Below are positions 30,236 to 51,438 of a stretch of 64,000 bases of DNA, piece by piece. The position numbers and the translations under genes were made by a program. Source of the DNA: Malacoraja senta (lineage: Eukaryota); contig CM075989.1 of NCBI GenBank assembly GCA_038087875.1, forward strand, positions 19,036,001 to 19,100,000. The letters are read 5' to 3'. Below the pieces are notes generated by a model. That model was not told the origin of the DNA, searched no databases, and was given only the letters and a program-made list of their open reading frames with translations. Each line of letters starts with the position of its first letter. Position 1 is the stretch's first letter.

Positions 30236-32650
30236 TAAGAATCTCATTGTTCTATTGCCAGTACATGACAATTCAACACTCTTAACTCTTGAATTAATCT
30301 GTTGCTGGAACTATCATCTTTGCAACCTTAACTTGAATGAGTGCACTCTTGAGTAGAACCTACACCCTCTCCGCTGTACACCCAAAATCATCCAAAACTC
30401 TATTGTCCAAGTCTTTATTACCACCAAATCTTAATATCTCATCAGTCTCAATATCTGTGTACCTGACCTCTACTAATTCATGGTTAAGCAACACCTCCAT
30501 TTTAAAATGCGTACTCTTATTTTTCATTTCATCCATGGCCTTGCCCTAACTTTCTCTGTAATTTCCTCCAGCCCTACATACTTTAGAAATCTCTAATTTG
30601 ACCCTCTGCTTGCAATTCAAAGACGTGCGGGTCTCTAGGTTGGAAGAAGGGTTCCGACTCGAAACATCACCTCTCCTTTTTCGCCAGCAATGCTGCATGA
30701 TCCACTGAGTTACTCCAGCACTTTGTGTGTCTATCTTCGGTATAAACCACCATCTGCAGTTCCTTCCTACACTTCCAGGTTAATTGGCCTCTGCAAATTG
30801 CCCCTAGTGTGTAAGGAGTGAATGAGAAAGTGGGATAACATAGAACTAGTGTGATCGATGGTTAGTGTGGACTTGGTGGGCCAAAAGGGCAGTTTCCAAG
30901 TTGTATCTTTCAATCAATCAACCTTATTTATGCTCGATGGTAGACACAAAATGCTGGAGTAACTCAGGCAGCAACTCTGGAGAATTTTGCTTGATTGTTG
31001 GGGTTGGGCTCTCAGCTATCAAGTGCCTAACACTGGAATACCCTCCATGAACTTCTCTGCCAAACCTCATTGTCTTCCTCTACTCTTCTGCTTGATATTT
31101 ACCTCTTTACCTAATCTTTTGGCCCCCTGCCCAAATAATTCCATAAATGGCTTGGTGTCAAATTATATTTGATAACATTACAGCAAGGCATTTTGGGATG
31201 TTTTGCTAGGCTAACAATTGTCAGTTGTTATATATTTTTGTCTCAACCCATTTTGTGAGAACATGTGATGTATTGTGTTTGCATATACAATAGGTCATTG
31301 TGAATGGAAATCATTTTTACATGAGATCACCTGTACCTTATCCTTAAGATGATCTCAGTAAGTATGATACTAGTTATACACTGGTGATTCTGTCAGCACC
31401 ATTCCATACAGCTCCAAGCTCAAAAGCAGTGCAATGCGTCAACAACCAGTAATGGAACAAGAACATTATTATGTGCTGCAGCTTAACAGGCTCCTTTAAG
31501 CAATAACGCACAAGTCAATATACGTATAATAATCACTCATGCAATAAATTAATCATCGCAATACTAGGGAACCATAATGATGCAAAGACTGAAGTCTGTA
31601 GTGCAACCAAAGACACAGTCCATAGTGGATTACAGTTGCTGAGGTTAGTGTTGTATACTGTTCAAGAGCCTGATGGTTGCTGGGTAGAAGCTATTCTTAA
31701 ACCAGGAGGTCATGGTTTTCGGGCTTCTGTATGTTCTGGATGAGAGCGTGGCCAAGGTGGTGTGGGTGATATTGGCTGCTCTTTTAAAGAGTATTGGTTT
31801 CCTGGCTGAAAGAAAGGTATATCTACTTTAGAAATGGTAAGTTGAAGATTCACAAACTGACTCATAGGATGAGCTATGAGGACAGATTGAAACCGAACAA
31901 CGATCTCATTAAAACCTATAAACGTCTCAGAGTTTTGACTGGGGAAATATGAGAGTTTAGAAACATAGAAAATAGGTGGAGTAGGCCATTCGGCCCTTCG
32001 AGCCAGCAGCGCCATTCAATATGATCATGGCTGGTCATCCAAAATCAGCACTTCGATCCGGCTTTTTCCCCATATCCCTTGATTCCTTTAGCCATAAAAG
32101 CTAAATCTAACTCTCTCTTGAAAACATCCAGTGAATTGGGCTCCACTGCCTTCTGTGGCAGAGAATTCCACAGATTCACAACTCTCTGGGTGAAAAAGTT
32201 TTTCCTCATATTATTTCAAATATCTATCAAATATTTCAAATTGCTACTAATGCAAACATGACTTTTCTGATATCTGTTCTGCAGATATTTCACATATCTG
32301 CATACTTCCATAATTCACATACTTCCAATGCAAAGATCTGAAATGGACCTCACCTAAGCAAAGATTCTGTTAAATTTCCTCACAGCTCAACTGGGCAAGA
32401 TACCCCCTTGGTAGTTCAGGGGATTGATTCATTGCTGTCAATTCAGAACATCATTGATTTTCCAATTATTGTCGTGTATTGAATAGGCAGACAATTGCAC
32501 ATTCTCCCTGTGACCGCGTGGGTTTCCTCCGGGTGCTCGTTTCCTCCCACATCCCAAACACGTGTTGGTTTGGACGTTAATTGGCCTCTATAAATTGCTC
32601 CTAAAGTGTCGGGAGTGGATAAGAAAGTGGGATAACATAGAACTAGTGTG

Positions 32651-32847
32651 TGGTAGACAAAAGTGCTGGAGAAACGCAGCGGGTGCAGCAGCATCTATGG
32701 AGCAAAGAAATTAGGCTATTAGGATATAGGCTATTTAGAAATAGGAAATAGCCTATTTCCTTCGCTCCATAGATGCTGCTGCACCCGCTGAGTTTCTCCA
32801 GCACTTTTGTCTACCTTCGATTTTCCAGCATCTGCAGTTCCTTCTTA
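32651..32847 (+). mobile_element. Fold-back PLE-tail derivative nested in an HE1 SINE
   Basis: Inverted arms; perfect 17-bp TSD AACATAGAACTAGTGTG at 32634-32650 and 32848-32864 duplicating SINE sequence. Confidence 0.9.
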
Positions 32848-33672
32848 AACATAGAACTAGTGTGAATGGGTGATCAATGTTCAGCATGAATTTGGTGAAC
32901 TGAAGGCCTGTTTCCATGCTCTATCTCTAAACTGAACATCCCACCTGATTCTCCCATCTCTACTGTTACACCCCACAGGGTTTACTAATGAAGGACAATG
33001 GGCCAAGTAATATCCTTTCTTTGATTCCATCTTATAGATACGTCCAGAGTGTCATCATTGTTGTCTATGAAATCAGTCCCATTTTCCTTTTCTTTACCCT
33101 TTCTCATATGTTTGAACGATCGGTGGCATCGTGGCCAGATACCTGTGTTCAAACCTGACCTTGGGTGCATTCTGTGTGGAGTTTGCATGTTCTCCCTGTG
33201 ACTACATGTATTTCATCCGGGTGTTCTGGCTTCCTCCCACCGGGGAAAGGGAAAAGAGAGATATAGAACAAATGAATGAAAGATATGCAAAAAAGTAACG
33301 ATGATCAAGGAAACGGTCCATTGTTGGCTGTGGGCTACGTGAAAACGAGTTGTACAAAGAATGAAACTCGCTGAGTTACTGAAGCTTTTTGTGTCTATCT
33401 TCGGTGTAAACCAGCATCTGCGGTTCCTTCCTACACCTTTTGTCCACCTATCACTTGCCAGACTTTACCCCACCACCATCCCCACCTCTCTTTTCCAGTT
33501 TTCTCCCCTACTCCATCAGTGTGAAGCAGGATCCCAGACCAAGGCGTTGTCTGTCCATTCCCTCCACTGATGCTGCCTGACCTGCTGAGTTCCTCCAGCA
33601 CTTTGTGTTTTGTTCAAGATTCCAGCACTTGCAGTTCCTTGCGTCTCCGCGCCACCAGCCCAATGGCCGCTG

Positions 33673-33960
33673 CAGCGCCCCCTGGCGTCGCGGAGTACTT
33701 CACCGGCGTTCCCCTCCAGTCCCGGAGTACTTCACCAGCGCCCCCTGGCGTCGCGGAGTACTTCACCGGCGTTCCCCTCCAGTCCCGGAGTACTTCACCA
33801 GCGCCCCCTGGCGTCGCGGAGTACTTCACCGGCGTTCCCCTCCAGTCCCGGAGTACTTCACCAGCGCCCCCTGGCGTCGAGGAGTACTTCACCGGCGTTC
33901 CCCTCCAGTCCCGGAGTACTTCACCAGCGCCCCCCCTCCGCGTCGAGGAGTACTTCACCC
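33673..33960. repeat. 63-bp CpG-rich minisatellite, 4 full units plus a partial fifth
   Basis: Unit CAGCGCCCCCTGGCGTCGCGGAGTACTTCACCGGCGTTCCCCTCCAGTCCCGGAGTACTTCAC starts at 33673, 33736, 33799, 33862 and 33925. Confidence 0.97.
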
Positions 33961-34057
33961 ACACCTCCGACATCGCGCCGCATCTGTTGTTGCCCAGCGA
34001 CGCTTTGCCGTAAACGATCTTCCTCCGCCCAGCGGCTCGTCTTTGCGACCCGGCAAC

Positions 34058-34115
34058 ATGGCGGACATGACAGACTTGTTCGGCAGCGACGCGGACAGCG
34101 AGCCAGAGCAGAAAG
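34058..34115 (+). CDS. LEO1: LEO1 coding exon 1 (MADMTDLFGSDADSEPEQK)
   Basis: ATG in AACATGG context inside a CpG island. The peptide matches the vertebrate LEO1 N-terminus (human MADMEDLFGSDADSE). Donor G|GTAGC, phase 1. Confidence 0.95.
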
Positions 34116-34462
34116 GTAGCGCCGCCCTGCGAAGGGCTGACCACTGGTGGGTGGGTGGGTGGCTGGGTGCCCGCGGGGGTGGGCGAGCGGGCGGGAGCCC
34201 GGCCCAGGGACCGAGCCTAGTCACCCGGGTCAATCGACGACCCGGCTCAATCCCGGGGCCAGGGCCAGGGCCGCTGGTTTGTGACTTCACTGTAGAGAAA
34301 CAAGAGCATCTTCAAAATGTATGTCTGCAGAGCAGTGCAGCGAGCAAGACAGATGCATGATTATATGGGATATTGTTAGGGCCTAGAATATACTGAGGAG
34401 AACGTCTTGGTAGTACAAAATTAATTGATCACAGCTGGAATATATATATTTATTGTCACCAA

Positions 34463-34649
34463 GGTAGACAAAAGTGCTGGAGAAACTCAGCGGGTGCAGC
34501 AGCATCTATGGAGCGAAGGAAATAGGTAACGTTTCGGCCCGAAACGTTGCCTATTTCCTTCGCTCCATAGATGCTGCTGCACCCGCTGAGTTTTTCCAGC
34601 ACTTTTGTCCACCTTCGATTTTCCAGCATCTGCAGTTCCTTCTTAAACA
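34463..34649 (+). mobile_element. Fold-back PLE-tail derivative in LEO1 intron 1
   Basis: About 77-bp inverted arms centred on 34538. The sense arm matches the tail at 58907-59020. TSD ATTT(A/C)TTGTCACCAA at 34448-34462 and 34650-34664. Confidence 0.9.
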
Positions 34650-34823
34650 ATTTCTTGTCACCAAACTATGACAAGATCCTCCCTTACATAGAACAAACAG
34701 TACAGCGCAGGAACTGCCCCTTTGCTCGACAAAGTCCACGCAAAACAGGTTCATATTAAAGTTAAACTAACCTCCCTATAAGGTGAGAGGGAACAGATTT
34801 AATAGGAACTCGAGGGGCAACTT

Positions 34824-35790
34824 TAGTTTATTGTCACATGTACTGAGGTACAGTAAACAGGTTTTTGTTGCGTGCTATCCAGTCAGCCGAAAGGCTATAC
34901 ATGATTACGGTCGAGCCATCCACAGTGTACAGATACAAGATAAAGGGAATAATGTTTAGTGCAAGATAAAGTTCAGTAAAGTCTGTTTATAAATAGTCCG
35001 AGGGTCGCCAATGAAGTAGATGGTAGTACAGGACTAATTGTTGATGGGATCGTTCAGTTGTGTGATGATAGTTGGGAAGAAACTGTCCTTGAATCTGGAG
35101 GCATGCGTCTTCATACTTCTATACATCTTGCCTGATGGGAAAGGGAAAATGAGGGAGTGACTGGAGTGAGACTCGTCCTTGATTTTGCTGACGACGTTGC
35201 TGAGGCAGCGTGAAGTGTAGATGGAGTCAATGCAAGGGAGGTTGATTTGTGTGATCATCTGGGCTGCATCCGCAATTCTCTCCAATTTTGTGGGGTCTTG
35301 GATGGAGCTGTTCCCAAACCATTCTGTGATGCATCCTGATAAAACGTGTACCGCTTCACTTCCTGAAGTCGATCGCTATCTCTTTGTCTTGCTGACATTG
35401 AGAGTAAGATTATTGTTTTGACAATTGGGTACGAGGTTCTCAATCTGTCATTATTTGATATCTGGCTCACTGTGGAGGTGTTGTCTGCATTTTGTAAATT
35501 GAGTTGGATTTATACTTGGCTGCAGTCGTGGGTGTGTAAGGAGTAAGGTGGGGGGAGGCTGAGAACGTATCCTTGTGGAGCACCAGTGTTGAGGATTGTC
35601 GAAGAGGATGATTTGTCCCCTATCCTCACTGATTGTGGGCTGTTGGTCAGGAAGTCGAGGATCCAGATGCAAACATGAGTGCTGAGTTCCAAGTTCTACA
35701 AATTTGGTGATGAGCTTGGATGGGATAATGGTATTAAAAGCAGAGGTGTAGTGTATGAATAGAGGTCTGACATAGGTGTCTCTCTTATCC
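34824..35790 (-). mobile_element. Rex1/Babar-like LINE 3' fragment nested in a CR1 fragment
   Basis: [40 protein letters not shown] and SRFKDSFFP motifs. CR1 sequence is broken at ~34823 and resumes at ~35794. Confidence 0.8.
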
Positions 35791-35989
35791 AGGTTTTTCC
35801 ACACAGAGGGTAGTGGGTATATGGAATGAGCTGCCAGAGGAAATAGTTTAGGCAGCTATAATAATAGCAGTTAAAATACACTTTTGACAGGTGCGTGGAT
35901 AGGAACAGTTTAGTGGTATATGGGCCAAAGTTGGGAAAATGGGGCTAACCTAGATGGAGCATTTGGTCGACATGGATCAGTTATGCCGA

Positions 35990-36087
35990 GTCTGAAGAAG
36001 GGTCTCGACACAAAACGTCGCCCATTCCTTCTCTCTATAGATGCTGCTTCACCCGCTGAGTTTCTCCAGCATTTTTTAAATCTATTT
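35990..36087 (+). mobile_element. PLE-tail derivative inserted in a CR1 tail
   Basis: Starts GTCTGAAGAAGGGTCTCGAC; 13-bp TSD TCAGTTATGCCGA at 35977-35989 and 36088-36100. Confidence 0.85.
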
Positions 36088-38670
36088 TCAGTTATGCCGA
36101 AGGGCCTGTTTCCATACTGTATGACTCCTCTGACTGCACGTCATCCATATTGCTCCATTCCCTGCATATCCATTTGCCTCTTAAATGCCACTATCGTAGC
36201 AACCTTCACCAACTCTGGTAGTACGTCCCAGGCTATAAGAAAACTTATCTCTCTTAGCTATATGGTGAGAGCATAGAAATTGGCATCTTTCCTTATCTGA
36301 CACGCTTTGGTCTCCTTTTCACCTCTAGCTTTTATCTCTATTTCTACCCATCTGCCAATCAACCACCCCTCATCCATATCCAGCTATTACTTGCCAGGCT
36401 TTGGCCCATCCCTAACTCTCATTTCCAGCTTTCAACCCCCCACCCTCGCCTCCGCTACAGTCTGAAGAAGGGTCCGCACCCAATATGTCTTCTGTTCATT
36501 TCATCGACAGGTGGACACACAGTGCTGGAGTAACTCAGTTGGTCATGCAACAGCACCTTTTTTAGATTGGTCCTCATCACCTCTTTGCTCTATATAGAAG
36601 AAGGTTGCTGAATTTAATCATGCATTCGAGCAGGAAAAGCATTCCTGCTCTCCATCATTTGTGATAAATTCAGCTACAGAAGAAATAACAAATGTTCTAA
36701 TTTTCCTTGTTCACTTGTGATATTCGGCACAGAGGCAACTTTTAGGTCTAGTGTGTGGGTCAAGCATGTGGAGCTAAATAAATTAATAATAAATATATCT
36801 CCTTTAAATTGGAAAGAAGGCAATTGTGAGGTAGTCAAACACATTTTTGGTTAATTGTTAGACTGCATAACTATTAGAGCAAGTATTATCTTTTCTACAT
36901 TAGCACTGGAATAAATAAAATCCACCAATCTGAAAATTCTGACCTTAAATCATGAAACTTAGAGGAAACTATTGCTCGATCCTACGTATGAAAATTTAAA
37001 ATAAAATATGTTATTCAACATTTCAGAAAAATTAAACTATTAGTTGTTGATTAGAGTGCATAGAAGTTGGGAATGAGACTAGTAGTAAGATAGTAATATC
37101 AAATGTCCAAACATCCTAACTCCAGAAATTGCAATTCAGAGGCTGCTGATTTAATCGAATTTTAAGTCCTCACCTGGCATAGTTTTCATTTGTCTTTTTT
37201 AATAAGGTAGCTGGAAAGGTGTTCATTGTGTACATTACAGGGTACAAGAATATCACAGTCTCACTAGGTGGGAAAATGATTGCCAGGTTCCAACAGGAGA
37301 TTCTCTCCAGCTGTTAAGTGCACGGCACATGTTTATGCAATTTCTGATTACTCCTGACATTAATTTAAATTTCAGAACACTTATTGGAATGAATTTCTGC
37401 CTTTTTGGATTATTTCTTGATCTGTGGCCCGTTGCTCAAGAATACTCATTTCAGTGCCAATTCATTTCAAATCTGATTCAAACTTGGTATGATTGAATTC
37501 ATTTGAAAGTTGTGTTTGAAAATGATATTGATTTATTTTTCTTCTATAAGAAAAATATCTGTAACCCCACCGTCTACTCCAACGCAGCTTCACAATAATT
37601 GTTGATGGGCTTAGTATCAGAAAAAAGTATTATTGTCTGAATTATTGAATAAAAAGAGTTACTTAATCAGTTCTTTGGCCATTGTTGCCATTGATGTCCA
37701 GTGAGTGAGTTAAATTGAAAACATTTGGAAATTGAACTCATTTCCTATCATGAATTAGTTTCTACAGACCACAAGTAATACTTCAGAACACTAAACACCT
37801 GAGCACATTGAGATGCTGATTTTGCAGAGTAAATGCACTGTTTTAAAACTAAATTACAGCAGTTCTTCTGTAACTACAGTTGCTGTGCTACATGCTCTTG
37901 ATTTCTTTGCTTGAAACTGCCATATATTTTGGCCAATAAATAACCTCTATGTTAGTGAAATGATTAAAGTGCAATGCAAAGGTAGACAAGTGCAATGCAA
38001 GAATACTTTACAAAATTATAATGCAGTTTTTTGTAAAACACAAAGCCCGTGAGCAATTTGGTGGGTCAGGCAGCATCTGTAGAAGGAAATAGACAGACCA
38101 CATTTCGGGTCTGGACCCTTCTTCAGATAAAATGCAGTGTTCCAAATGTAGTTTTGTGCTTATTTGTTCAGCGTATTTATTTCCTCAAATCAGGAACGGG
38201 GGAAAGTGCTGAAAATAGTACTTGTTCAAAAAAAAAGCTCGCAATATCTCTTGTGATAATTTAGCTCAAGAAATATTTTTAAATTATAAGGTGGCATGTT
38301 TTCCACACATCAATTGTCCAATATCTCAATTCAATGAACAACAACAAAAAGTCACTGTTCTGAAATATTAGTTTTTATCTTTCTCTTTGTGACTTACCGA
38401 GTACTTCTAACATTATTGGTTTTTAGCTTTTAGATTTCTACCTTCCACACATTTTTTTGGGATAAAACATATTGAGGCTGAGTTGTTTGTAATGAAGTGT
38501 CCAGGGTTTGCAAATGTATGAAATTGGTAGAAATAAAGGACTAGCTATTTCGTACATCATTGTATTAGAATAAGAAGGTCTTTATATTAATGTCAAATCT
38601 CCTTTTTACATGAATGGATTGATGCTAGCAGAATTAGATTAATTTGGTTACTTGTCTTTTATGTTTGCAG

Positions 38671-39372
38671 ATTTTGATTCCAGATCTGGATCGGGCTCGG
38701 ATTCTGAGCAGGAGCAAGCGGCCTCGGAAAGCAATCCTTCCAGGAGCGAGAGTGAAAGGGAAGACAGAAATGAGGATGAAGATGAGAGAGAAGCTACTAA
38801 ACCTAGCAATAAAGAGCTGTTTGGGGAGGACAGCGAGGACGAAGGCTCGAGACACAATGGAAGTGAAGACATGTCCGAAAACCAGTCCATCGCTTTGGGG
38901 CAGTCTGACCAGGAGGACGTTCAGCATTCGGAAACAGAGCAACACAGTGGCTCAGAAGAGCATCAGTTTGAAAATGAAGATGACGACAATGTTTCTGATG
39001 CAGAGAGCATGCATTCGGACGCTGGCAGCGTTCGCTCCGACGCCGGTAGCGTGCACTCGGAGGCCGCAAGCGTTCACTCAGAAGCTGGAAGCGTGCACTC
39101 GGATGTCGCAAGTATCCGATCCCACTCCGAAGTTGGTAACGTCCATTCAGACGCTGGCAGTGTCCACTCCCGATCCGATGCCATGAGCAACCACTCACAC
39201 TCTGATGCTGCCAGTAACCAGTCGGACGCTGAGGAATCTGGAAAGGAGGTGCACTCTGAGAATGAGAAGTGGGAGCGGGCTTCCAGGAGTGATCAATCAG
39301 ACGAAGAGGAAAAAACTCACCATTCAGAAGAGGAGCAGCAACTGTCAGATGAAGAGCAAGAACGTAAATCAG
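38671..39372 (+). CDS. LEO1: LEO1 coding exon 2 (acidic Ser/Asp/Glu-rich region with KPSNKELFGEDSEDEG and heptapeptide repeats)
   Basis: Acceptor tttgcag; in frame with ORF 38652..39416; PSNKELFG-DSEDEG motif as in LEO1. Donor TCAG|GTATTC, phase 1. Confidence 0.93.
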
Positions 39373-39954
39373 GTATTCAAAAGCAAAAAATAAAAAACTT
39401 CAGATGCTGGAAATAGAAAATAAAAACAAAAAAGTGTGTACTCACAATGTCACACAGCATCCGTGTAATGAAGAAAGAGTTAACGTTTCAGGTCACTTGA
39501 AGGGTCATTCACCTGAAATGCCAGCTTTGTTGCTCTCTTCACAGATGCTGCCTGCACTGTTTTATATCTGGAGCCTTTGCTGGTTTTCTGACACAAATTA
39601 GGTGATTTATAAATAAAACAAATCTATGAGGCAAGACCTTTGCTTCCAATGGCAAAATAATATAAATTATTTCCCCAACTATAGAATTCACTTCTTTCAC
39701 TTGCATGAAGGAATATAATTTGCTTTAATCAGCTATCAAAATTTTAAGTGGATAAAACTTGACTGCATTTTGTCATTTATAAACTCGTATTGAATTGGTC
39801 TCTCAAAATGTGATTGCAAGCAGCCTTGCATTTGTGATCGCTTTTGGTATTAAACTTTATTCCTGTGATTTTCCGTGAATTAAGCGAGCATTGATAGCGA
39901 GAGGTTCCTAAGTCTGATGCTAATCTTTTAAATCATTCTCAATTTCAGTTGCAG

Positions 39955-40056
39955 GATCTGCAAGAGGTAGTGATAGTGAAGAGGAAATAGTTCGACACAA
40001 GTCAAAAAAATTAATTGCTTCGGATTCTGACTCTGACACCAATATAAAGGATAAAG
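39955..40056 (+). CDS. LEO1: LEO1 coding exon 3 (SARGSDSEEE...ASDSDSDT)
   Basis: Acceptor ttgcag (an in-frame alternative AG lies 6 nt upstream). SARGSDSE motif. Donor G|GTAA, phase 1. Confidence 0.9.
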
Positions 40057-40193
40057 GTAACACTTTTCACGACGTTTTCACGCTGCTACATACATTTTGT
40101 ACTTTATTGAAAGGATGACAATTTTATAGCATTACCAGCTACGGATGGTGCAATATTTTTTCTGAGGATGTTGGTGCTATGTCTGTGTTGCAG

Positions 40194-40285
40194 ATAAAAT
40201 AGATGGAGATGATCTTTTTGGAGGTGCAGATGATATTTCATCTGACAGTGAAGGTGAGAAACCTCCCACTCCAGGCCAACCTGCA
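40194..40285 (+). CDS. LEO1: LEO1 coding exon 4 ([24 protein letters not shown])
   Basis: Acceptor gttgcag; [11 protein letters not shown] and [11 protein letters not shown]1 motifs; donor GTAAGT, phase 0. Confidence 0.95.
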
Positions 40286-40591
40286 GTAAGTATTTATTTG
40301 AAGCTGTATCATACATTCTTTTGATTGAATTTCCTAGAAATCTTATATAGCAATTGATTTTAAGATGTGCTTTACTAAGAAATCTGGACAGATGATGGAC
40401 AAGTAGGTAAAAAAAAAAGAAAGAAATTAAACTGCAAGGAATGGATTCATCTACAATTGCATTATTGCAGCCAGAATAGGCTACTAAAAAGAAGTCATGT
40501 AATGGCCTTAATAAGATTACTCTCGTAGTTGGCATGGCATCAGTGGGTCGAATGGTGTTCTGTGTCTTGGGGGGAACATGAGAAATTAGAT

Positions 40592-40887
40592 TTTAGTTTA
40601 GTTTAGAGAAACAGGGCAGAAACAGGCCCTTCGGCCCACCGAGCGCGTGCCAACCAAGGATCCCCACACATTAACGCTATGCACACGTGGGACAATTTAC
40701 AATTATACCAAGCCAATTAACCTACAAAACTGTACGTCATAGAAGTGTGGGAGGAAACCGGAGACCCCGGAGAAAACCCGCGCAGGTTACGGGGCGACCG
40801 TACAGACAAGCACCCGTAGTCAGGTTCAAAACCCAGGTCTCTGGTGCTGTAAGGCCGCAACTCCACCGCTGCGTTGCCATGCCGCCC
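40592..40887 (-). mobile_element. HE1 SINE in LEO1 intron 4
   Basis: Full-length copy. Confidence 0.85.
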
Positions 40888-41337
40888 GTAACCAGATGTA
40901 CCAAATACCTCATTGTAGGATGATTCTCTAAAACTGTATCCTGAGATTGTTATGAAGTAAAAAAAAAATTAATATCTAGTGAATATTTTTTGTAAAAATA
41001 TTTCTAGTGAAATCGTTTTTGAGGCTATGAAAGTTTAAAAGGAAAATTTGTTTAATCGGTTGGTTAGAGTTAATGTATAGGGCATGGAATTGGGATCATC
41101 GCTACAAAAATCAAAATAAGTTCTTAGCCTGCCATTGCATAAGGTTACCGTGTTATTTTTCTTTTGTTAAACAATTGATTTGTTCATTTATCATTTTCAT
41201 TGAAAGTTTGGTAATAGCATTTTAATTGGTTTAGTGATAATGACAATGATACCACTAAATGATGGCATTTACCATTTTGTGTTGTACACTTTTACATCCA
41301 TCCCTTCCGCCTTTTACTAATTGTGTATTTGCTTTAG

Positions 41338-41483
41338 GATGATTATGACATGGATCATGATCATGCAGAAGAAGAACCAATTTCAGAGACACGGATAGAA
41401 GTCGAGATTCCCAAAGTGAACACTGATTTAGGAAATGATCTATACTTTGTTAAACTGCCTAACTTCCTCAGCGTGGAACCCAG
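41338..41483 (+). CDS. LEO1: LEO1 coding exon 5 (start of Leo1 domain: [32 protein letters not shown])
   Basis: Branch-like TACTAAT upstream, acceptor ctttag. Translation essentially identical to vertebrate LEO1. Donor AG|GTAC, phase 2. Confidence 0.97.
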
Positions 41484-41985
41484 GTACTTCAACTTGTGTT
41501 GTATCTAAAATATTGAAGTGAATACAAAGGTCAAGATCACACGGGGTTTAGATTGGATTACATTCCATCGTCTCCAAAAATGTTTCCCTCAGGATTTTAT
41601 CTACCAAATCTTAAATAATATCAAGGATTTTGACTAATGTCTAAGAGACTCCCCTACCATCTACCAAAATCGGTTCAGTGTAGGGAATTACTGGAGATGA
41701 TTCTTCTTAGTTCATTCTTTTCAAAGCTAAATGTCTTCACTTTTTTCATGTCTTTCAATGTTAGCGATTGGTCTGACTTTTCAAATTGCACCTCGATTTT
41801 CAGACTCCTTGCATATTGATGGCCAAAACTGAACATCGTACTTGTGTTGTGCTATATTTCGAGGGTGTGAACTCGGGTTTACACGGAATACATTAAGATT
41901 ATGATACTTATTTTCTTTAAAGGCATATTTTAAAATCCATTGTGCCCATTTTTCAAACTTTAAGCTTTCTGTTTGTTTTCTTAAG

Positions 41986-42070
41986 ACCATTCGATTCTCA
42001 GTACTATGAAGATGAATTTGAAGATGAAGAAATGCTGGATGAAGAGGGTAGAACAAGACTTAAATTAAAG
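41986..42070 (+). CDS. LEO1: LEO1 coding exon 6 ([28 protein letters not shown])
   Basis: Polypyrimidine tract plus AAG acceptor; conserved peptide; donor AAG|GTAAT, phase 0. Confidence 0.97.
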
Positions 42071-42285
42071 GTAATGCCCACAAACCCTCCCATTCCCACT
42101 CCAAGGTAATTGGTAAATGTGTCTGATGGCTATGATTTTGCTGCATATATTTTTATATGCCGCCCTATTGGTAGCCACTGGGTAGAGAGAGAGAGAGAGA
42201 GAGAGATAGACTGGAGAACCATGGAGGTTAAATTCAACACTGATGGGAATCTTAAACCTTACAATTATTTGTCTTCTGATCGCAG

Positions 42286-42380
42286 GTGGAAAACACAATT
42301 CGCTGGCGAATACGCAAGGATGAAGAAGGAACTGACATTCGTGAAAGTAATGCGCGAATAGTAAAATGGTCAGATGGAAG
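42286..42380 (+). CDS. LEO1: LEO1 coding exon 7 ([15 protein letters not shown]...[12 protein letters not shown])
   Basis: Acceptor cgcag; conserved Leo1-domain peptide; donor AG|GTTGGT, phase 2. Confidence 0.97.
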
Positions 42381-43399
42381 GTTGGTAATATTTATTTACC
42401 AACTAAAGTGTCTCTAACAGATGATAAAAGCTGTAAGATTTACTTTTTCATAATGTAGCTTTAAAGTATTCTGATTTCTTGTGAGGATCTCGATTTAAGT
42501 TTGCTTATTAATTTATGTATCGTCTCACACCTTTGGAAAAATTACAGTGTGCTTAACTGGATATAGTTGTAACACCAGCAATGTGGAAGGGAAGCTTCCT
42601 TGCTTAGAAAATAAACATGTGCATGCTATATATTAAAAGGGAGAGTGGAAAAGAGAAGAAAACTTTAATTGATAGATTATTTGAATTCATTTTAACAGGC
42701 AAAATTGGGAGATAGGTTAAAATGTTTGGATTTGAGAAACATGAGATCTGCCTCTATTAGACAACTTTTGGATTTTACCGCAGAATATTGAATAGACCAC
42801 CGATGCATTCTCAAAAGCTAGATGAGTTGGTTTTTTTTGGAGTGGGAGGTTCCTCAGGCTTAACTGATTACCTGGTGGATCTCTTGTTTTTTTTTGTAAA
42901 TCCAGCAAGTAAAGGGAGGCAAGAGCAGCTTGGAAATACAATGGTTAGACGAGATCAATCACGTTCTCGAAGGTATAGATCTGTTAATCTGCAATGTGGG
43001 TGTTTGGAGATGCTGATGGTACGGTCCCTGTTTCCCATCCTCACGTTGAAGTGCTTTGGGCCCCCATTTGTTGTGCTTCCATTTCCTGCACTCCCTTTAA
43101 AGCCCACCAAGGTGCTATTTCCTGCACTCCGTTCAAACTTTCCAGGTTTAAAATGTATCCATTTCTTTGTAACATTTAAAAATAAAAGAATTGAGAGTGT
43201 ATGGGATGTTAATGTGAATAGTCCAGAAAATCTGCCCGGCTAATATTACCAAATTCCCAAGTGTGATAGTTTATTGGAGTGTGTTTGAACTATTCTTGGG
43301 CTATTTTGTACTTACAGTAAAATTCAGTGGCTTGTGAATTTCTGTGATATTTAAAGAAACAAATCTCAAGAAACCGAACACTGCATATAGCATTTATGA

Positions 43400-43609
<210 letters not shown>

Positions 43610-44715
43610 TGATTATCTCAAACTGCTGTAAAAATGTTGCATAACTTATGAAATTGTTAAAGAGTGTTTATCTTTATCAGAAGTATTTGTTGGGAATGAA
43701 CTCACTTTTTAAAAACTCTATGCCTGTTCTTGCAGTGGAAAATATGTTATTAAAATTGATCTTAAAAAAGATAATTCAAATTCTCTCTTTGTAATCAGAA
43801 CAAAGTTATGTTGTAACTTTGAGTTTAGCTGTGAGAATTGACACAGATTTCAGTTGCCTTACTTCAACCCAGTTAATAAATGAAATCAACATCTTTACTC
43901 ACTATTGCTTTCCTAATGATAACCAAAAGGAGACCCACCCCTTCTCCTCCCTCTCTCCCCTGCCCACCTCACCCCAATATGTACCAATCGCTTGTACCAC
44001 CCCAGTTGCCCTCCTCTTTTCTCCCCTATACGCTCATTTCCCATCTCCTTGTTGCCTTTCACTCACCTTTTACCCCTCCCCATGTTCCCTTCCACCCGTA
44101 GCCTTCCCTCGGGCTTTATATTACACTCCTTGTCTCTTTATCTGATACCCTTTTATGTCCTTTTCACCTCTAGCCTTTGTCATTTACTCCACTCATCTGT
44201 CAATCACCCCCTCTTACCTCTATCTACCTATCACTTGCCAAGCTTTACCCCACTTCCACCTCCCTTTTCCAGCTTTTTGCCCCCTACTCCATCAGTCGAA
44301 AGAAAGGTCCAGAACACAAAATGTTATCTGTCCATTCCTCCATAGATGATACCTGACCCACTGAGTTCCTCCAGCACTTTGTGCTTTGCTGAAGATTCCA
44401 GCATCACAAGTTTCTCCTCTTTGTTTCACCACAGTCATTTGGGGTTTCTTTCTGGAATATAATTTTTTTTAAATGGTCATAGAAGCTCATAAACCATACT
44501 TGATGTTCAAATTGTTTGAAAATGTCATCTTAGTCCTACTTTATTTTAACCTTTCCACTTCATAAATAGCCAGCCGTCATTTTGGAATATTTTATAGCCA
44601 CTGATGCCCTCTAGTGCTTGCCTAATGTCCACTCTTCATGTATGAACTGAAATAGCTTGTGTGGACAAGATAGGCACAAGAACCATAACCAAGTCTATTC
44701 TCAACTCTGCTTCTC

Positions 44716-45082
44716 AGTTCAGTTTAGTTTATTGTCACGTGTACCGAGGTAAGTGAAAAACATTTTTTGTGTGTGAACCAGCCAGCGGAAAGACAATACA
44801 TGATTACAATCAAGCCTTTCACAGTGTACAGATACGCAATAAGGGAATAATGTTTAGTGCCAGATATAGCAAGCAAAGTCCGATCAAAGATAGTCCGAAG
44901 GTCCCCGATGAGGTAGATAGTAGTTCAGGACTGCTCTCTGGTTGCGGTAGGATGATTCAGTTGCCTGATAACAGCTGGGAAGAAACTGTCCCTGAATCTG
45001 GAGGTATGCGTTTTCACACTTCCATATCTTTTGCCCTATCGGAGATGGGAGAAGAGGGAGTGGCCAGGGTGTGACTCGTCCT
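44716..45082 (-). mobile_element. Rex1/Babar-like LINE 3' tail
   Basis: Reverse complement of the tail also seen at 1517-1815 and 61205-61523 (SRFRDSFFPAVIRQLN-type end, 3' UTR, AATAAACTAAAC). Confidence 0.75.
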
Positions 45083-45264
45083 TTCTCAGTGGATGACAAT
45101 CTAGTGGAGTTCAGTATTTACCTCCATAAAGCCAGTTTATTATCACCCAATCTGAACATCAGTATCCTCCTGAGTATCATTCTATACATTGGAATTATCC
45201 CTGTGGCTCTCAAGTGAATGTACTGTTCTAAATGGTAAATATATATGTTTTATAAAAAGATTAG

Positions 45265-45519
<255 letters not shown>

Positions 45520-45530
45520 TGAAAAGATTA

Positions 45531-45828
45531 AAGCAGACCCTTCAGCCCACTGAGTTCATGCCGACCATCGATCACCCATTCATTCTAGTTCTATGTTATC
45601 ACATTTTCCCATCCACTCCATGCACACCTGGGGCAATTTACAGAGGCCAATCAACCTACAAACCCACACGTCTTCAGGATGTGGGAGAAAACTGGAGCAC
45701 CCCGAAGAAACCCATGTGGTCAGAGGGAGGACGTGCAAACTCCACATAGACAGCACCTGAGGTCAGGATTGAACCCGGGTCTCTGGCGCTGTGAAGCAGC
45801 AGCTCTACCAGCTGCCTCACTGTGCCGC
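45531..45828 (-). mobile_element. HE1 SINE in LEO1 intron 9
   Basis: Near full-length copy filling most of the intron. Confidence 0.85.
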
Positions 45829-45891
45829 CAGTGTTGTACAATTACAATTGTTTGTAACTGCACCTAACTGCAAATTGTCTTCGATTGGCAG

Positions 45892-46075
45892 AAAGAGGAG
45901 GAGCGTCTCAAAGCTTCTATTAGAAGAGAATCTCAGCAACGTAGAATGAGAGAGAAGCAGAGCCAGCGAGGTCTGAGCTCCTCCTACCTGGAACCTGATC
46001 GTTACGATGAGGAGGAGGATGGCGATGATACCATCAGCCTTGCAGCCATCAAAAACAAGTTCAAAGGGATCAGAG
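45892..46075 (+). CDS. LEO1: LEO1 coding exon 10 ([23 protein letters not shown]...[10 protein letters not shown]...[11 protein letters not shown])
   Basis: Branch-like CCTAAC, acceptor ggcag; conserved peptide; donor G|GTATGT, phase 1. Confidence 0.97.
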
Positions 46076-46080
46076 GTATG

Positions 46081-46686
46081 TAGTCATAGTCATAGAGTGA
46101 TACAGTGTTAAAACAGGCCCTTTGGCCCAACTCACCCACACCGGCCAACAATCCCTAGTCGCACTTGCCTGCGCTTGGTCCATAATCTTCTAAACCTGTC
46201 CTATCCATGTAGCTGTTCAACCGTTTCCTAAACAATGGGATAGTCCCAGCCCCAACTACCTCCTCTGGCAGCTTGTTCCATACACCCACCATCCTCTGTG
46301 TGAAAAAGTGACCTCTCGGATTCCTATTAAATCTTTTCCCCTTCACCTTGAACCTATGTACTCTGGTCCTTGATTCCCCTACTTTGGGCGAAAGACTCTG
46401 CATCTACCCGATCTATTCCTCTCATGATTGTGTATACATCTTCCCTCATCCTCCTACGCTGCATGGAATAGAGACTCAGCCTGCTCAACCTCTCCCTATA
46501 GTTCACACCCCCTAGCCCTGGCAACATCCTCGTAAATCTTTTCTGAACCCTTTCAAGCTTGACAATATATTCTCTATAACATGGTGCCCAGAACTGAACA
46601 CAATATTCTAAATGCGGTCTCACCAACGTCTTATACAACTGCAACACGACCTCCCAACTTCGATACTCAATACACTGACTGATGAA
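46081..46686 (-). mobile_element. CR1 3' fragment in LEO1 intron 10
   Basis: LYKTLVRPHLEYCVQFWAP...ERVQKRFTRMLPG in ORF 46354..46803, and FFTQRMVGVWNKLP in ORF 46155..46403. Confidence 0.9.
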
Positions 46687-47771
46687 GTCAGACTGTGGAC
46701 TGTGACTCTGCACGCTGCCTCTACACTTCACGCTGCCTCGGGAAAGCAGCCGACATAATAATATACCTTTCCCAACCCGCTGTTTCTTAATGCATTGCAT
46801 CATTTTCCATGTACTTTGTACCTCGATGTGTTTGTGTCAGATTACTGCTGTAAATCGCTTCCCAATTTCTGAATCTGTATCTCATTGTTTTCGATGTTTA
46901 ATTTTGGTGAATTCTTTTTACATAGAGAATTTGGTAATACTTTCAGCTTCAAAGGAATCAGATAACAAGTATAACTTTTTTTTAAACTCTCAAAATTAGG
47001 GGCCTGTGGAAATTGCAGGAATATGTGCCTAATTTAACTTTGTTGGTAGGTTATTAATGGTGAGATATATTTGATAATTTTTGTTACGGTAGGAATCCTA
47101 CCTCTACTTTCATGAGGAGCTTAATGTTAATAATAATAATACATTAATAGGAGACTAGTGATTATTTAGGGAACTAAGCATTTTTATTGCTGAGAAACAC
47201 GTTAAGATGATACAACAGTTTTTAAAAGTTGAAATGACAATTTAAAAACCCAATTGAGGCTAAAGGTGGCAAGTATTGGAGAAAATGCACATAATCCTGA
47301 TTTTTCAACGCAGTTTTTAGGTAGTCGTGTGGTAATGGCAGCCGAGAGTTTACAATCCTGTCCTTGCCATTTTTCTCATTGACATCCAGCCCATGATAAT
47401 TTTAGAACAAAGTAGCTAGAAACCCACATTAAATATTGAACCAGATGGCTGTGCTCTATAATTGGGTATAATATGTAATATTATGATGTAATATTTTTCC
47501 AATAGGTGGCATGCACAGCACTGTAGGAAACCGAGTCAACAAACTGGTAACCTTTAGAGGTGAAAGATGCAGGCAGACAGAAAATAAGCTTTGCTGGGCC
47601 AGGAAGATCATTGCTGACAACACTTTCTAAACCTCTGTGTGCCACTTCTCCTCTCCACCCGAAAATTCCACTAATGCACAATTTTTGTCGTGGTTCCACA
47701 GATTTCTTGCTCCCATGACCATTCTATGAGTGGTTTCTCAACAGTAGCTTACAGATGTTAGTACAATGAGA

Positions 47772-48013
47772 ATAGACACAAAATGCTGGAGTAACTCAAC
47801 GGGTCAGGTAGCATCTCTGGAGAAAACAAATAGGTTTTTATTTCAGGTCGAGACCCTTCTTCGGTCTACTAGACTACTAAGGTCTGGAGAAGGGCCTGAC
47901 CCAAAATGTCACCTATTCCTTTTCTCCAGAGATGCTGCCTGACCCACTGAGTTATTCCAATATTTTGTGCCTATCTTCAGTGTAAACCAGCGTCTGCAAT
48001 TCCTTCCTACACA
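47772..48013 (+). mobile_element. Fold-back PLE-tail derivative (second subfamily) in LEO1 intron 10
   Basis: Antisense arm plus sense arm; TSD TTA(G/T)TACAATGAGA at 47758-47771 and 48014-48027. Confidence 0.85.
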
Positions 48014-48485
48014 TTATTACAATGAGACACACTCAGCATACTTCACTCATGCCAGTGTGCTCCATGCCTGATTCTGTATGCAAGTTCTTCCACAGCCTCG
48101 GCAGCATGTTTGTTCACACAAAGGTAGAAGCAATATTAGTGAGGACATTATGAGATTACAGGCGTTTAGCAATACTCCAAAATGTATCCTCAATTGAAAT
48201 TCTGCTGTGTGACAGTTTGCGAGTCTTTAACAAACTCGTGAAATGTATCTCTCCCTTATATTAACCATAATCTGGTAATGCCCCACAGCGGAGTATGTAT
48301 TCCATTCATACAGATACATTCTATTATAGACTTCTCTCTCCACTGCTAAAACCAAGCCAGTGAATTGTAAATCACACTATTTAGTATTGAAAGCTACAAT
48401 ATCTCTTTAAAAGTTGTCATGTTTTTGAACAAAGGTGAGTGCTATAAATATCTACTTTAATATCTGTGTTTAATATCTATTCCAG

Positions 48486-48583
48486 AGGAGCGCGCCCGTA
48501 TTTATTCCTCAGATAGTGATGAAGGGTCTGATGATGACAAAGCACAGAGGCTCCTGAAAGCCAAGAAGCTTGACAGTGATGAG
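48486..48583 (+). CDS. LEO1: LEO1 coding exon 11 ([32 protein letters not shown])
   Basis: Acceptor ttccag; conserved peptide; donor GAG|GTTAGT, phase 0. Confidence 0.97.
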
Positions 48584-49423
48584 GTTAGTATGGAAAACCA
48601 ACATGCAGATGTCTTCATTTTAAAATACAAATTTGGAATTGTGTTCACAGGTTTCTCTTGGAAGGTTGAAACGAATATTATCATTGATAGTGGAAAGATT
48701 TTAAACTTTATATATTAACAAAGTCATATATATGTCATCTTTAACTAAGATTTTACATTGAGAGCCAGAGTCATGGAGCACAGAAACTGGCCTTTCAACC
48801 CAACTAAATACCCCATCTAAGCTGGTCCCATTTTCCTCCGTTTGGCCCATATCCCTCTAAACCATTCCTGTCCATATATCTCTTCAAATGTCTTTTAATT
48901 GTTGTAATAGTACATGCCTTAGTTCTATCCTATCCAACCTCTCCCTGTTGCTCAGGCCCTCAAATCTTGGTAACATCCTCGTTAGTCATCTCTGCACTCT
49001 TTTCAGTTTAATGGCATCTTTACTTTGGTTGGGTGACCTAAACTGAGCACAATACCCCAAGTGCGGCCTTGCCAAATTTGGTCTGTTCAGACTTGCAGAA
49101 AATAATCCAGTTGATTAAAACTAAATTAAAATTTATAAATGACTAGGAAAGTTTCAGAGGAGTATGGACCAAATGCAGGAAGTCGGGCCCGGCATAGATG
49201 TGGCATCTTGATCGGTATGGACAAGTTGGGCCAAAGAGTCTGTTCCCCTGCAGTATGATTTTATGACTCTAAGTGCCTTCACTTGATGTGTAACATCTAT
49301 TTGGTTGAAGATTTGTGAGAAAGCATTTAATAAATGCCGCAACATGTACAGCAAAATCGTGCTTTATTGGAACATCAAAAGCTGTATTTTAAGTTGTAGG
49401 AATGAGAAGTTTGTCCCTTGGGG

Positions 49424-49826
49424 TCATAAGTGATGTGAGCAGAATTAGGCCAGTTGGCCCATCAAGTCCACTCTGCCATTCAATCATGGCTGATCTATCT
49501 CTCCCTCCTAACCCAATTCTCCTGCCTTCTCCCCATAACCTCTGACTTCCATACTAATCAAGAATCTATCTATCTCTGCCTTCAAAATATCCATTGGCAT
49601 CCTCCACAGCCTTCCGTGGCAAAGAATTTCACAGGTTCACCATCCTCATCTCCTTAAAGGAATGTCCTTTAGTTCTGAGGCTATGACCTCTAGTCCTAGA
49701 TTCTCCCACTAGTGGAAACATCCTCCCCACATTCGCTCTATCCAAGCCTTTCACTATTCGGTAAGCTTCAATGAGGCCCCCCCTTATTCTTCTAAACTTC
49801 AGCGAGTACAGGCCCACTGCCGTCAA
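49424..49826 (-). mobile_element. CR1 3' fragment in LEO1 intron 11
   Basis: LYSLKFRRIRGGLIEAYRIVKGLDR...SRTRGHSL. Confidence 0.8.
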
Positions 49827-50893
49827 AGGGGATCAAAGTAAACTTTGATTTGTGAATGTTTAGTACTTGTCACGGTAAGGTGGATTTAAGTTGTAAGCAT
49901 TTTTTTCCATTGTCAGTGTTATGATGACTGTGATTAGTGTATGAAATCATGATTGCTCTATTTTGGTAGGTGAGGGGAGGGGTGAGAAATAATTTAGTTG
50001 AAGCTTTGTGTTTCTCTGGGGAGGTGTTTCTCCTGCCTGAACAGACAATGAGCGAGTGGTTTGAGTGAGTGGGTGACCCACACCACTCTGCTGTGTGGTT
50101 AAGGATGTGGTGAGACGACTGCATAAGGAAACAAAATGGAAATAAATTGTGAAATGTAATGTTTTATCAACATTTAGAATTTAAAGAAAGGATCCATGGT
50201 TTGTGAAATGCTAAGTTTGATATTTAACCCAGAAGTTAGATTTTTAGTCAATTTCATTTGCATCCTAGTAAATAGTTTATTATTTAACGTGTTTAAACAT
50301 TTTTATTAAAATGGATCAAGGATGGATTTTTTTTTTCTCAATAAAAGGTAGCTATACTTATTTGTATTGCTGGAGCACTGGAAGATGGTCCAAGTTGATA
50401 CCTCCTGAGAATCTTCCAAGTACCTCTCAAATCTATTTCTGGAATCCCCGAGACAAATGATGGCAGACGTTGGTGTTACAGTGCCTAATGACTGCTCAGC
50501 AGAAGCTGCAGGGATGAAATAAGCAGCTAGACTAATTTTGCCCTGTATTTTATACATACGGACTTAAATTTCCTCTATCTTTTAACATGTAATGCCAAAA
50601 TGAAATGTTTGACCATTGAAAGATGATGACCAGATGCAGTAAAGCTCTGAAGATTCTGATGGTGCAGCATATGCCTTATTCACAAGTCCAGGCAGAGAGC
50701 TGAGAGTCCCGAGTGCAGGCAGGGGTGCAGCCAGAGTCAGCGTATGCTGATGGGGCTGGAGTGAGGGTCCAGAACGCCAGGTAGAAGGAACGTGTGTCTG
50801 GGTCTGGGGTCTTTGAACTCTACACGTTAAAAAAACAAAACAAAAGTGTGCTTGTTTTTAATAGGAATAACACCCAATAGTGTTGAAGCTTTG

Positions 50894-51085
50894 ATGGTAG
50901 ACAAAAGTGCTGGAGAAACTCAGCGGGTGCGGCAGCATCAATGGAGCGAAGGAAATAGGCAACGTTTCGGCCCGAAACCTTGCCTATTTTCTTCGCTCCA
51001 TAGATGCTGCCGCACCCGCTGAGTTTCTCCAGCACTTTTGTCTACCTTCGATTTTCCAACATCTGCAGTTCCTTCTTAAAAACAA
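50894..51085 (+). mobile_element. Fold-back PLE-tail derivative in LEO1 intron 11
   Basis: Same architecture as the 34463 copy; perfect 15-bp TSD AGTGTTGAAGCTTTG at 50879-50893 and 51086-51100. Confidence 0.9.
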
Positions 51086-51336
51086 AGTGTTGAAGCTTTG
51101 TCTGTCCGGCACATCCAAAGTCCAAAAGGTGATGCTTCTAGTGGGACTGGCTTGGTTAGACACTGGTCGGCATGGACGAGCTAGGCCAAAGGGCCTGTTT
51201 CCATGTTGTATAACTCTGAGTCTATAAAAATAAACCTTATCACACCTGTCAATACAATAATCATATTGGCAACTTATACTCTTTCTTTACTTTCTTTCCT
51301 TTCTCTTTTCTCCAAAACCACCTTCCCCCACATTAG

Positions 51337-51438
51337 GACGGTGAACATTCTGGAAAGAGAAAAGCGGAAAATGATGACAAAGGTTCCAGCAAAAGAGCAA
51401 AGAAGTATGTGATTAGTGATGAAGAGGACGATGAGTGA
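51337..51438 (+). CDS. LEO1: LEO1 last coding exon 12 (DGEHSGKRKAE...KKYVISDEEDDE*)
   Basis: Long pyrimidine tract plus TAG acceptor; SGKRKAE and KKYVISDEE motifs; TGA at 51436-51438. The 12 exons sum to 1935 nt = 644 aa + stop. Confidence 0.96.
   Translation, partial: DGEHSGKRKAENDDKGSSKRAKKYVISDEEDDE

Follow-up and report, generated by a model that had tools for sequence, protein, structure and literature searches.

Fold-back insertions of Penelope-like element 3' ends in and upstream of LEO1 of Malacoraja senta, with clues to priming from both target strands

Introduction

Several short, hairpin-forming insertions lie in and upstream of the gene LEO1 of Malacoraja senta, and the locus raises the question of what these insertions are and how each came to carry two inverted arms. 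We analysed a stretch of 64,000 nt (contig CM075989.1, assembly GCA_038087875.1), called the window below, whose numbering is used throughout. The portion of Craig et al. 2021 (PMC8557442) that treats the inverted copies and tails of Penelope-like elements (PLEs) describes their formation as unresolved, and with the 16 fold-back pairs present per 64 kb here the rival models can be compared by counting in the sequence alone. The discovery itself is modest, since the layout is a published PLE signature, and its value is as material.

Results

Named insertions and their target-site duplications

Direct repeats of 13–17 bp, taken as target-site duplications (TSDs), flank 6 of the 6 named copies, namely five fold-backs and one unfolded copy, and all six were recovered at the places claimed in the first-pass annotation. 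When the same search was applied to random pseudo-elements, 0 of 400 reached 13 bp and the longest repeat was 11. All named copies are on the + strand. The young fold-back 32651–32847 (32634..32864 with its TSDs 32634–32650 and 32848–32864, 17 bp, no mismatch) is composed of an antisense arm (32652–32716), a slipped-repeat centre (32717–32750), a sense arm from 32751 and a 32-nt tail (32816–32847), and its inverted match, 32652–32720 with 32747–32815, is 94% identical. A second young fold-back, 34463–34649 (34448..34664; TSDs 34448–34462 and 34650–34664, 15 bp, one mismatch), has arms at 34461–34537 and 34539–34615 (96%), a centre at 34531–34545 and a 36-nt tail at 34614–34649. The third, 50894–51085 (50879..51100; TSDs 50879–50893 and 51086–51100, 15 bp without mismatch, or 17 bp with one), has arms at 50881–50970 and 50972–51061 (90%, including a chance extension into the TSD), a centre at 50964–50978 and a 39-nt tail at 51047–51085. 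Two fold-backs are older. In 29696–29827 (29680..29843; TSDs 29680–29695 and 29828–29843, 16 bp, one mismatch) the arms match at 29695–29723 and 29754–29782, and the antisense arm, which has no tail, extends beyond the tailed arm by about 34 nt on the 5' side. The other, 47772–48013 (47758..48027; TSDs 47758–47771 and 48014–48027, 14 bp, one mismatch), retains a degenerate hammerhead core in both of its arms (47762–47835 and 47911–47984, 84%). The unfolded tail-less copy 35990–36087 (35977..36100; 13-bp TSD, no mismatch) starts 2 nt 5' of CUGAAGA and ends at the boundary between pseudo-LTR (pLTR) and tail.

The host gene and the intronic hairpins

The LEO1 coding span is 34058..51438 (+), with the ATG at 34058, the stop codon at 51436–51438 and 12 exons, which were numbered by our own count from open frames and splice signals. 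PF04004 matched four of the six exon frames given, three of them at E ≤ 2e-6, while a Pfam search of exon 2 returned 0 families. Copies 34463 and 35990 are located in intron 1, 47772 in intron 10 and 50894 in intron 11, so the earlier placement of insertions within LEO1 introns applies to these four; 32651 and 29696 are upstream of the ATG by 1.4 kb and 4.4 kb. An enrichment of fold-backs in LEO1 was considered and rejected, since 4 of 16 fall in 27% of the window and there is nothing special about LEO1. RNA folding of the 34463 and 50894 stems gave −146.9 and −154.7 kcal/mol (z = −20.6 and −21.6; matched by 0 of 200 shuffles). Both are intronic and would form a long duplex in the transcribed region, making them candidate ADAR or Dicer substrates. 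Sub-threshold microRNA matches in Rfam at 34484, 50899 and 32673 are ascribed to the hairpin shape, and such PLE hairpins can pass for MITEs or microRNA precursors in annotation.

A Penelope-like parent in the same window

A 5'-truncated Penelope-like open reading frame, recognised by its sequence motifs, occupies 57697..58773 (+) within the ORF 57673–58773. It contains YIDD of the reverse transcriptase (RT), a CX4CXXC linker at residue 233 and CXXC between GIY and YIG, and its endonuclease part reads CXXC between LIY and YIG with two His downstream. These motifs indicate an EN+ PLE, that is, a PLE RT followed by a C-terminal GIY-YIG endonuclease with CCHH. Its homologues number 62, of which most carry PF00078/PF26215 and some PF01541, with identity up to 52% over 99%; a direct Pfam scan of the PLE fragment returned 0 families. 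The linker fits the CX2-5CXXC motif of Neptune, common to Nematis and described between RT and EN for both in the pertinent part of PMC8557442, and the putative placement as Neptune-type rests on this RT-EN motif. Downstream lies the 3' pLTR end of the parent (58884..59020, +), comprising TCAGT (58885–58889), the hammerhead core (58890–58917), a quasi-palindrome (58900–58914) and a tail at about 58983–59019. Neither a TSD nor an inverted arm was found when looked for at this long PLE. EN+ PLEs are expected to have a pLTR on either side of the ORF in tandem, with the ORF start inside the pLTR; here the parent is 5'-truncated, and pLTR translations showed no match with the N-termini of the 62 homologues.

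Identity to the parent pLTR is 92–97% for the young arms and 70–88% for the older copies. By sequence, the named insertions are thus very probably short insertions of a Neptune-type PLE, consisting of its 3' end, the pLTR plus a 32–39 nt tail, with a minimal hammerhead. MITEs moved by a DNA transposase are likewise short, hairpin-forming repeats with direct repeats on their flanks. Their TSDs, however, have a fixed length, whereas those found here measure 13, 14, 15, 15, 16 and 17 bp; the ends are not mutual inverted repeats, because the inverted match stops 32–39 nt before the right end, leaving a one-sided tail; and the copies correspond to the 3' end of an RT/GIY-YIG element that the window contains. 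A MITE origin has hence almost no probability left, and the first-pass view of these copies as retrotransposed PLE ends is borne out.

The hammerhead core and the shared centre

A putative minimal hammerhead was recognised by inspection at 58890–58917, with core, stem II, NUH and a palindromic helix III stub; stem I of the parent copy has no more than about 2 bp, and an Rfam hammerhead search of the window and of 58840–59040 gave no match. As annotated earlier, 34463 and 50894 have the same 15-nt centre and lack CUGAAGA, which is absent from 32651 too. This centre is native to the unfolded parent as the quasi-palindrome 58900–58914, and in each run 218–609 contigs cross the motif and continue into the native upstream sequence. 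It overlaps the GAAAC core as well as loop II and the 3' strand of stem II. Because the pairing is in a different register, a switch at stem II was rejected. Of the template switch at stem II proposed at first, the stereotyped junction therefore stands, although it uses the native 15-nt quasi-palindrome, not stem II itself, and is one of many: contigs of four runs contain many different junctions (joints counted on contigs with 20–41 nt sides; the listing covered 15 of 3743 joints).

The self-annealing energy of the young 15-mer is −18.6 kcal/mol, versus −4.7 for the older subfamily, and its hairpin has −3.5 kcal/mol. Palindromic centres are found at 34531, 50964 and 59393. The unpaired centre base is the letter of the tailed arm in both 34463 and 50894. 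In 32651, both arms share a 4-nt non-native extension. Both also end at the predicted hammerhead cleavage site, a hint of self-cleavage of the putative ribozyme.

Family tally and empty sites

The window contains 58 family matches, which form 16 head-to-head pairs and 3 tail-to-tail neighbours; the insertions listed earlier are a subset of its fold-backs. By probe, exactly one tail was detected in 14 of the 16 pairs (p = 0.002 at 0.5), the other 2 departing from this pattern, and among single matches 13 of 26 have a tail. The outer end lies within about 3 nt of one boundary in the tail-less arms of 29696, 32651, 34463, 47772 and 50894 and in the unfolded 35990. In 5–6 of 16 pairs (7877, 18540, 29693, 39490, 59202 and perhaps 5852) it is the tail-less arm that extends further 5', and in 2 it is the tailed one; the ends of old copies, which are 70–80% diverged, are less sure. 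In a composite fold-back (59194..59443), a long tail-less antisense arm (59202–59397), which includes a tandem tail, is joined to a 31-nt tail-only sense arm; the joint is a 10-bp palindrome (59393–59402), and a degenerate TSD of 12–13 bp is possible. An automated TSD search over all loci gave few clear TSDs beyond the named copies (27763, 13 bp, and 38033, 11 bp, one mismatch each), and it missed 47772 because of the long envelope.

Paralogous empty sites were identified for three copies, 32651 (five sites), 35990 (six) and 29696, whose host repeat is uninterrupted at two other places in the window. As for orthologous empty sites, which the first-pass annotation had suggested seeking in relatives, none was seen among the rows listed for one further Malacoraja senta sample and three relatives. 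Contigs run 20–30 nt from the unique flanks into 47772 and 50894 (the bridging bar was 31 letters); 47772 is apparently present in three relatives and 50894 in relatives. Exact family patterns had no match in metagenome contigs or viral contigs.

Discussion

Origin of the inverted arms

The fold-backs hint that copying is primed from both DNA strands at insertion, and formation of the arms at integration through such two-strand priming is, on the whole, the best explanation and a somewhat probable one. The GIY-YIG endonuclease would cut the two target strands 13–17 nt apart, judging from the TSDs, and both 3' ends would prime reverse transcription inside the element RNA, as occurs in vitro for an anole PLE. 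Two start sites would bound the tail on this RNA, one strand starting at the tail end and the other at the pLTR/tail boundary, so that exactly one of the arms acquires the tail, while the other has a fixed end beside the TSD. Both cDNAs would be antisense and short, since the RNA 5' end or an RT stop would lie only 105–140 nt upstream, just before CUGAAGA. Their free 3' ends would then be joined head-to-head via inverted microhomology in the element; the native 15-nt quasi-palindrome of the young subfamily should anneal well, giving the same centre repeatedly, and otherwise microhomologies of 3–5 nt or templated fillers would serve. The resulting copies would be dead on arrival, and the hairpins in LEO1 pre-mRNA a by-product. 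In vitro, both strands were cleaved and extended at two start sites bounding the tail and a dimer was predicted, but no difference in start site was seen between the strands (PMC11167929), so the coupling that yields one tail per insertion is not explained by that work.

The same arms could have arisen by snap-back, in which a tail-end-primed cDNA folds on the quasi-palindrome or another microhomology, copies itself and joins the other target strand, with a protein bound at the pLTR/tail boundary, or an endonuclease cut there, ending synthesis. Among the R2-protein insertions covered in part of PMC11371274, 5' junctions of the snap-back kind are common, self-priming is proposed for PLE inverted junctions in a section of PMC3846280, and the 15-mer can form a hairpin. 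Two observations speak against two-strand priming here: the centre base in 34463 and 50894 agrees with the tailed arm, as snap-back predicts (chance 0.25 under our own model), and the extension shared by the 32651 arms implies some self-copying, so the 32651 centre fits as well. Snap-back, however, cannot yield a tail-less arm longer than the tailed one, and has to explain the fixed stop separately, whereas the unfolded tail-less 35990 with its TSD shows the boundary to be a start site. The single tail in 14 of 16 pairs, the one boundary and the longer tail-less arms in 5–6 pairs thus fit two-strand priming better, and we regard snap-back as rather unlikely. Arm asymmetry may also arise later through deletion at the palindrome centre.

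The hairpin master suggested at first, a non-autonomous family founded on one or a few fold-backs that are transcribed and retrotransposed in full, would account for the identical centre and outer end of 34463 and 50894, and in several runs some junctions are indeed repeated, with depths of roughly 7 to 70 times that of a single copy. Yet that centre is native to unfolded copies, junctions vary among the 16 pairs and across several subfamilies, and the copies have no common upstream flank. Distances between arms of the same side (left-left 3, right-right 4) are not below the cross distances (4 and 4) in the arm comparison, which covers one site in three copies; no site sets left against right arms, and one groups both arms of 50894. 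This idea was accordingly dropped as improbable. Even less credible is that the pairs are two independent insertions, or products of later inversion or gene conversion: the family is dense (58 matches in 64 kb), and at 26785/26992, where the spacer measures 126 nt, no TSD was found, but in each of the five named fold-backs a single TSD encloses both arms, head-to-head pairs outnumber tail-to-tail ones 16 to 3, and the paralogous empty sites show one event.

Returning to two-strand priming, the short copies might, more tentatively and at somewhat below even chances, be read not as random truncations but as traces that the integration cycle of a PLE has left in the genome of a cartilaginous fish. 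On this view, a dimeric RNP would prime one RNA from both target strands at its two start sites, giving one tail per insertion. Both cDNAs would end where the RNA does, at a fixed 5' end immediately before the hammerhead core or, in some cases, at the cleavage site of the ribozyme, and would then be joined head-to-head. If true, this reading would explain the long-standing puzzle of inverted pLTRs, count as evidence that the hammerhead cleaves in vivo and mean that perfect intronic hairpins exist in very large numbers.

Comparison with known systems

L1 twin priming also produces inversion during target-primed reverse transcription with microhomology joining, but it inverts without duplicating, whereas both arms here duplicate the same stretch with a fixed outer end. 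R2 snap-back junctions, in the part of PMC11371274 concerned with them, are similar to the present ones in inversion during target-primed reverse transcription and in microhomology joining. Known minimal hammerheads, in the portions of their descriptions consulted, resemble the putative one here in the core CUGANGA, the extra base before stem II, the G-C opening pair and the palindromic 15.2-16.2, and as widespread single motifs; unlike them, there are no tandem retrozyme arrays here, and the core is gone from three named copies. Poseidon of Anolis carolinensis, studied in vitro (Frangieh et al. 2024, PMC11167929), is alike in the pair of internal RT start sites that bound the tail, the cleavage and extension of both target strands and a hammerhead upstream of the start sites, while the Neptune-type linker belongs to the Malacoraja senta element; its main text does not link the two start sites to inverted copies and reports no reads at the cleavage site. 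The closest counterpart is the complex insertion of EN+ PLEs, consisting of inverted pLTR, direct pLTR and tail (Arkhipova et al. 2013, PMC3846280; Craig et al. 2021, PMC8557442), and an inverted pLTR, pLTR and tail with a palindromic junction is an already published PLE signature; short remnants of this kind are often left by PLEs. As described in parts of these reports, the head-to-head inverted 5' copy, the tail of 30–40 nt at one end, the palindromic inverted junction and the variable TSD are shared, and the inverted and direct pLTRs of rotifer Pen2a have an overlap of 15 bp. The TSDs here are 13–17 bp versus 8–10 bp in the rotifer insertions covered there, and the copies in this window differ in being only 130–240 bp long, in having no ORF and in their very high density.

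Fold-Back Insertions and Their LEO1 Setting

Five fold-back insertions (29696, 32651, 34463, 47772, and 50894, named by start coordinate), each built of a tail-less antisense pLTR arm and a sense pLTR arm with a one-sided tail, were located together with the unfolded copy 35990 where the first-pass annotation had placed them. Their TSDs are 16 bp (29696, 1 mismatch), 17 bp (32651, 0), 15 bp (34463, 1), 13 bp (35990, 0), 14 bp (47772, 1), and 15 bp (50894, 0), while 0 of 400 random pseudo-elements, used as a control, reached a direct repeat of 13 bp. Uninterrupted host repeats with a single TSD provide paralogous empty sites in the window for 32651 (five), 35990 (six), and 29696 (two); the flanks of 34463, 47772, and 50894 are unique, and no paralogue of these insertion sites was found in the window. 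The copies were retrotransposed, as had been annotated.

The LEO1 identity was borne out by a PF04004 match in four of the six exon frames submitted. The proposed intronic placement held for 34463 and 35990 (intron 1), 47772 (intron 10), and 50894 (intron 11), but 32651 and 29696 precede the start codon (ATG at 34058), and LEO1 may have a further non-coding exon upstream. LEO1 holds 4 of the 16 head-to-head pairs and occupies 27% of the window. An old fold-back (39396–39559) has its tail a few bases behind the likely exon 2 donor (~39372), and a GC-rich tandem repeat (33673–33959; 63-bp unit, 4.5 copies, 97% match) lies ~100 bp upstream of the start codon. The fold-back hairpins are predicted to fold very stably. 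Intronic duplexes of such length are plausible ADAR targets, as are the inverted repeats of other vertebrates, but less suited to Dicer. No sign of a function at LEO1 emerged.

Orthologues were compared over 3.9 kb, including 47772 and 50894, using contigs of 4 of the 24 listed runs (a second sample and three relatives). These contigs run 20–30 nt from the unique flanks into both copies, which is below the bridging threshold, and no empty site was seen among the contig rows listed. Both insertions therefore seem to predate the splits from the three relatives.

Parent Element and Family Census

The 5′-truncated parent PLE (~57697–59020) has an ORF carrying YIDD, a linker of the CX4CXXC type, and, within GIY-YIG, a CXXC; the linker type marks Neptune or Nematis (PMC8557442). 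The ORF fragment (57673–58773) is open for 366 codons, and neither a TSD nor an inverted arm was found at its 5′ end. It has 62 longer homologues with RT and PLE-type domains, the best named one being from bamboo shark (63% identity), which makes a cartilaginous fish the probable host. The parent 3′ end shares 92–97% identity with the 32651, 34463, and 50894 arms, and contains a putative minimal hammerhead, judged by the features of PMC4209133, which an Rfam search did not detect.

A family profile built from 14 window copies gave 58 matches in the window. Of these, 26 are singles and the others form 16 head-to-head pairs; 3 cases of tail-to-tail neighbours were counted. Using a 16-nt probe (≤4 mismatches), one tail was called in 14 of the 16 pairs (p = 0.002 against even odds) and in 13 of the 26 singles. 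The degenerate pair at 29167 has no tail by this probe, and pair 59368/59391 has two adjacent tails with a tail-less outer left end. A composite at 59202–59428 joins a long tail-less antisense arm, ~55 nt of unassigned sequence, and a tail-only sense arm at a 10-bp palindrome. Tail-less arms of the five fold-backs, and unfolded 35990, end within ~3 nt of one boundary. In 5–6 of the 16 pairs it is the tail-less arm that extends further 5′, and in 2 it is the tailed arm.

Of the 36 family matches that extend to the hammerhead core, 26 do not have the parent's pyrimidine tract, and their likeness ends 3–5 nt before CUGAAGA (reference 58885–58889). Loose ends of contigs fall off at the same place, so most copies have a common 5′ end, which may be a start site, a splice acceptor, or an RT stop. 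TCAGT (58885–58889) resembles the initiator consensus and is also similar to a splice acceptor. In Penelope, the promoter is internal and helix I marks the end of an intron (PMC2377424; PMC4209133).

Two MITE-like elements (12522–13010 and 30008–30236) have terminal inverted repeats of 49 and 38 bp with related starts, and the first named interrupts a PLE-end copy at 12431. Two long frames at 19588–20748 (− strand) resemble by eye the C-terminus of a further LINE-type ORF. A GC-rich stretch (18068–18648) may be a promoter island belonging to a gene next to it, and 28044–28243 is an assembly gap of 200 N.

Origin of the Shared Centre and of the Arms

The 15-nt centre common to 34463 and 50894 had suggested either a hairpin master, retrotransposed whole, or a template switch at stem II. 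The window holds three occurrences of this motif, one in each of these fold-backs and one in the unfolded parent (58900–58914), and 218–609 contigs per run cross it into native upstream sequence in four sequencing runs. Its self-annealing is strong in the young subfamily (−18.6 kcal/mol as a DNA duplex and −3.5 as a hairpin, vs. −4.7 and −0.6 in the older one), so that two independent events are expected to give the same centre. Over 69 common columns, the arms differ by 3 (left–left), 4 (right–right), and 4 and 4 (crosswise); no site sets left apart from right, one site is common to both 50894 arms alone, and the flanks of the two copies have nothing in common. Contigs of other genomic copies, with short sides, show many different junctions, some repeated across runs at 3–5 nt microhomologies; among those listed (15 of 3743 joints, plus 12 of the 800 rows with fillers), 50935 to 50999 recurs in four of four runs and 50979 to 50948 or 50949 in three of four. 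A single hairpin master is hence unlikely, given the native centre, ungrouped arms, unrelated flanks, and varied junctions, though minor sub-masters may exist. A stereotyped junction does exist, but pairing within the motif is between loop II and the GAAAC core, in a register different from stem II.

For the arms, the simplest reading, which we think somewhat probable, is that both staggered target 3′ ends would prime cDNA, one at each start site, and that inverted microhomology would then join the two cDNA ends. We prefer it because of the one-tail pattern, the fixed boundary, the arm asymmetry, and the anole PLE, for which PMC11167929 describes in vitro cleavage and extension of both target strands and two internal start sites bounding the tail. 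Those start sites show no strand preference in vitro, which speaks against this priming, as do the centre base, which carries the tailed arm's letter in two of two cases, and 4 non-native bases common to both 32651 arms; the asymmetry can also come from later deletion. Snap-back, in which one cDNA folds and copies itself, is observed in R2-protein insertions (PMC11371274), and a different form of it was put forward for PLEs of rotifers (PMC3846280); we consider it improbable as the general route, and it may act in some copies. Both arms of 32651 end exactly at the predicted hammerhead cleavage site, a hint, from one copy only, of a self-cleaved template, and its centre (32705–32750), in which the cDNA end is repeated with slippage about three times, suggests synthesis that was reiterative or templated. 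Extending two-strand priming at two start sites to a PLE integration cycle with a fixed RNA 5′ end and head-to-head joining is more tentative, falling somewhat short of an even chance.

Comparison with Known PLEs

A search of mainly open-access literature listed no paper on such insertions in sharks or skates and none that puts forward paired two-strand priming for inverted pLTRs. An inverted pLTR, a direct pLTR, a one-sided tail, and a palindromic junction, as found here, are described in PMC8557442 for PLEs generally and in PMC3846280 for rotifer PLEs, including an overlap of 15 bp. The skate insertions are real, but their layout is already known for PLEs.
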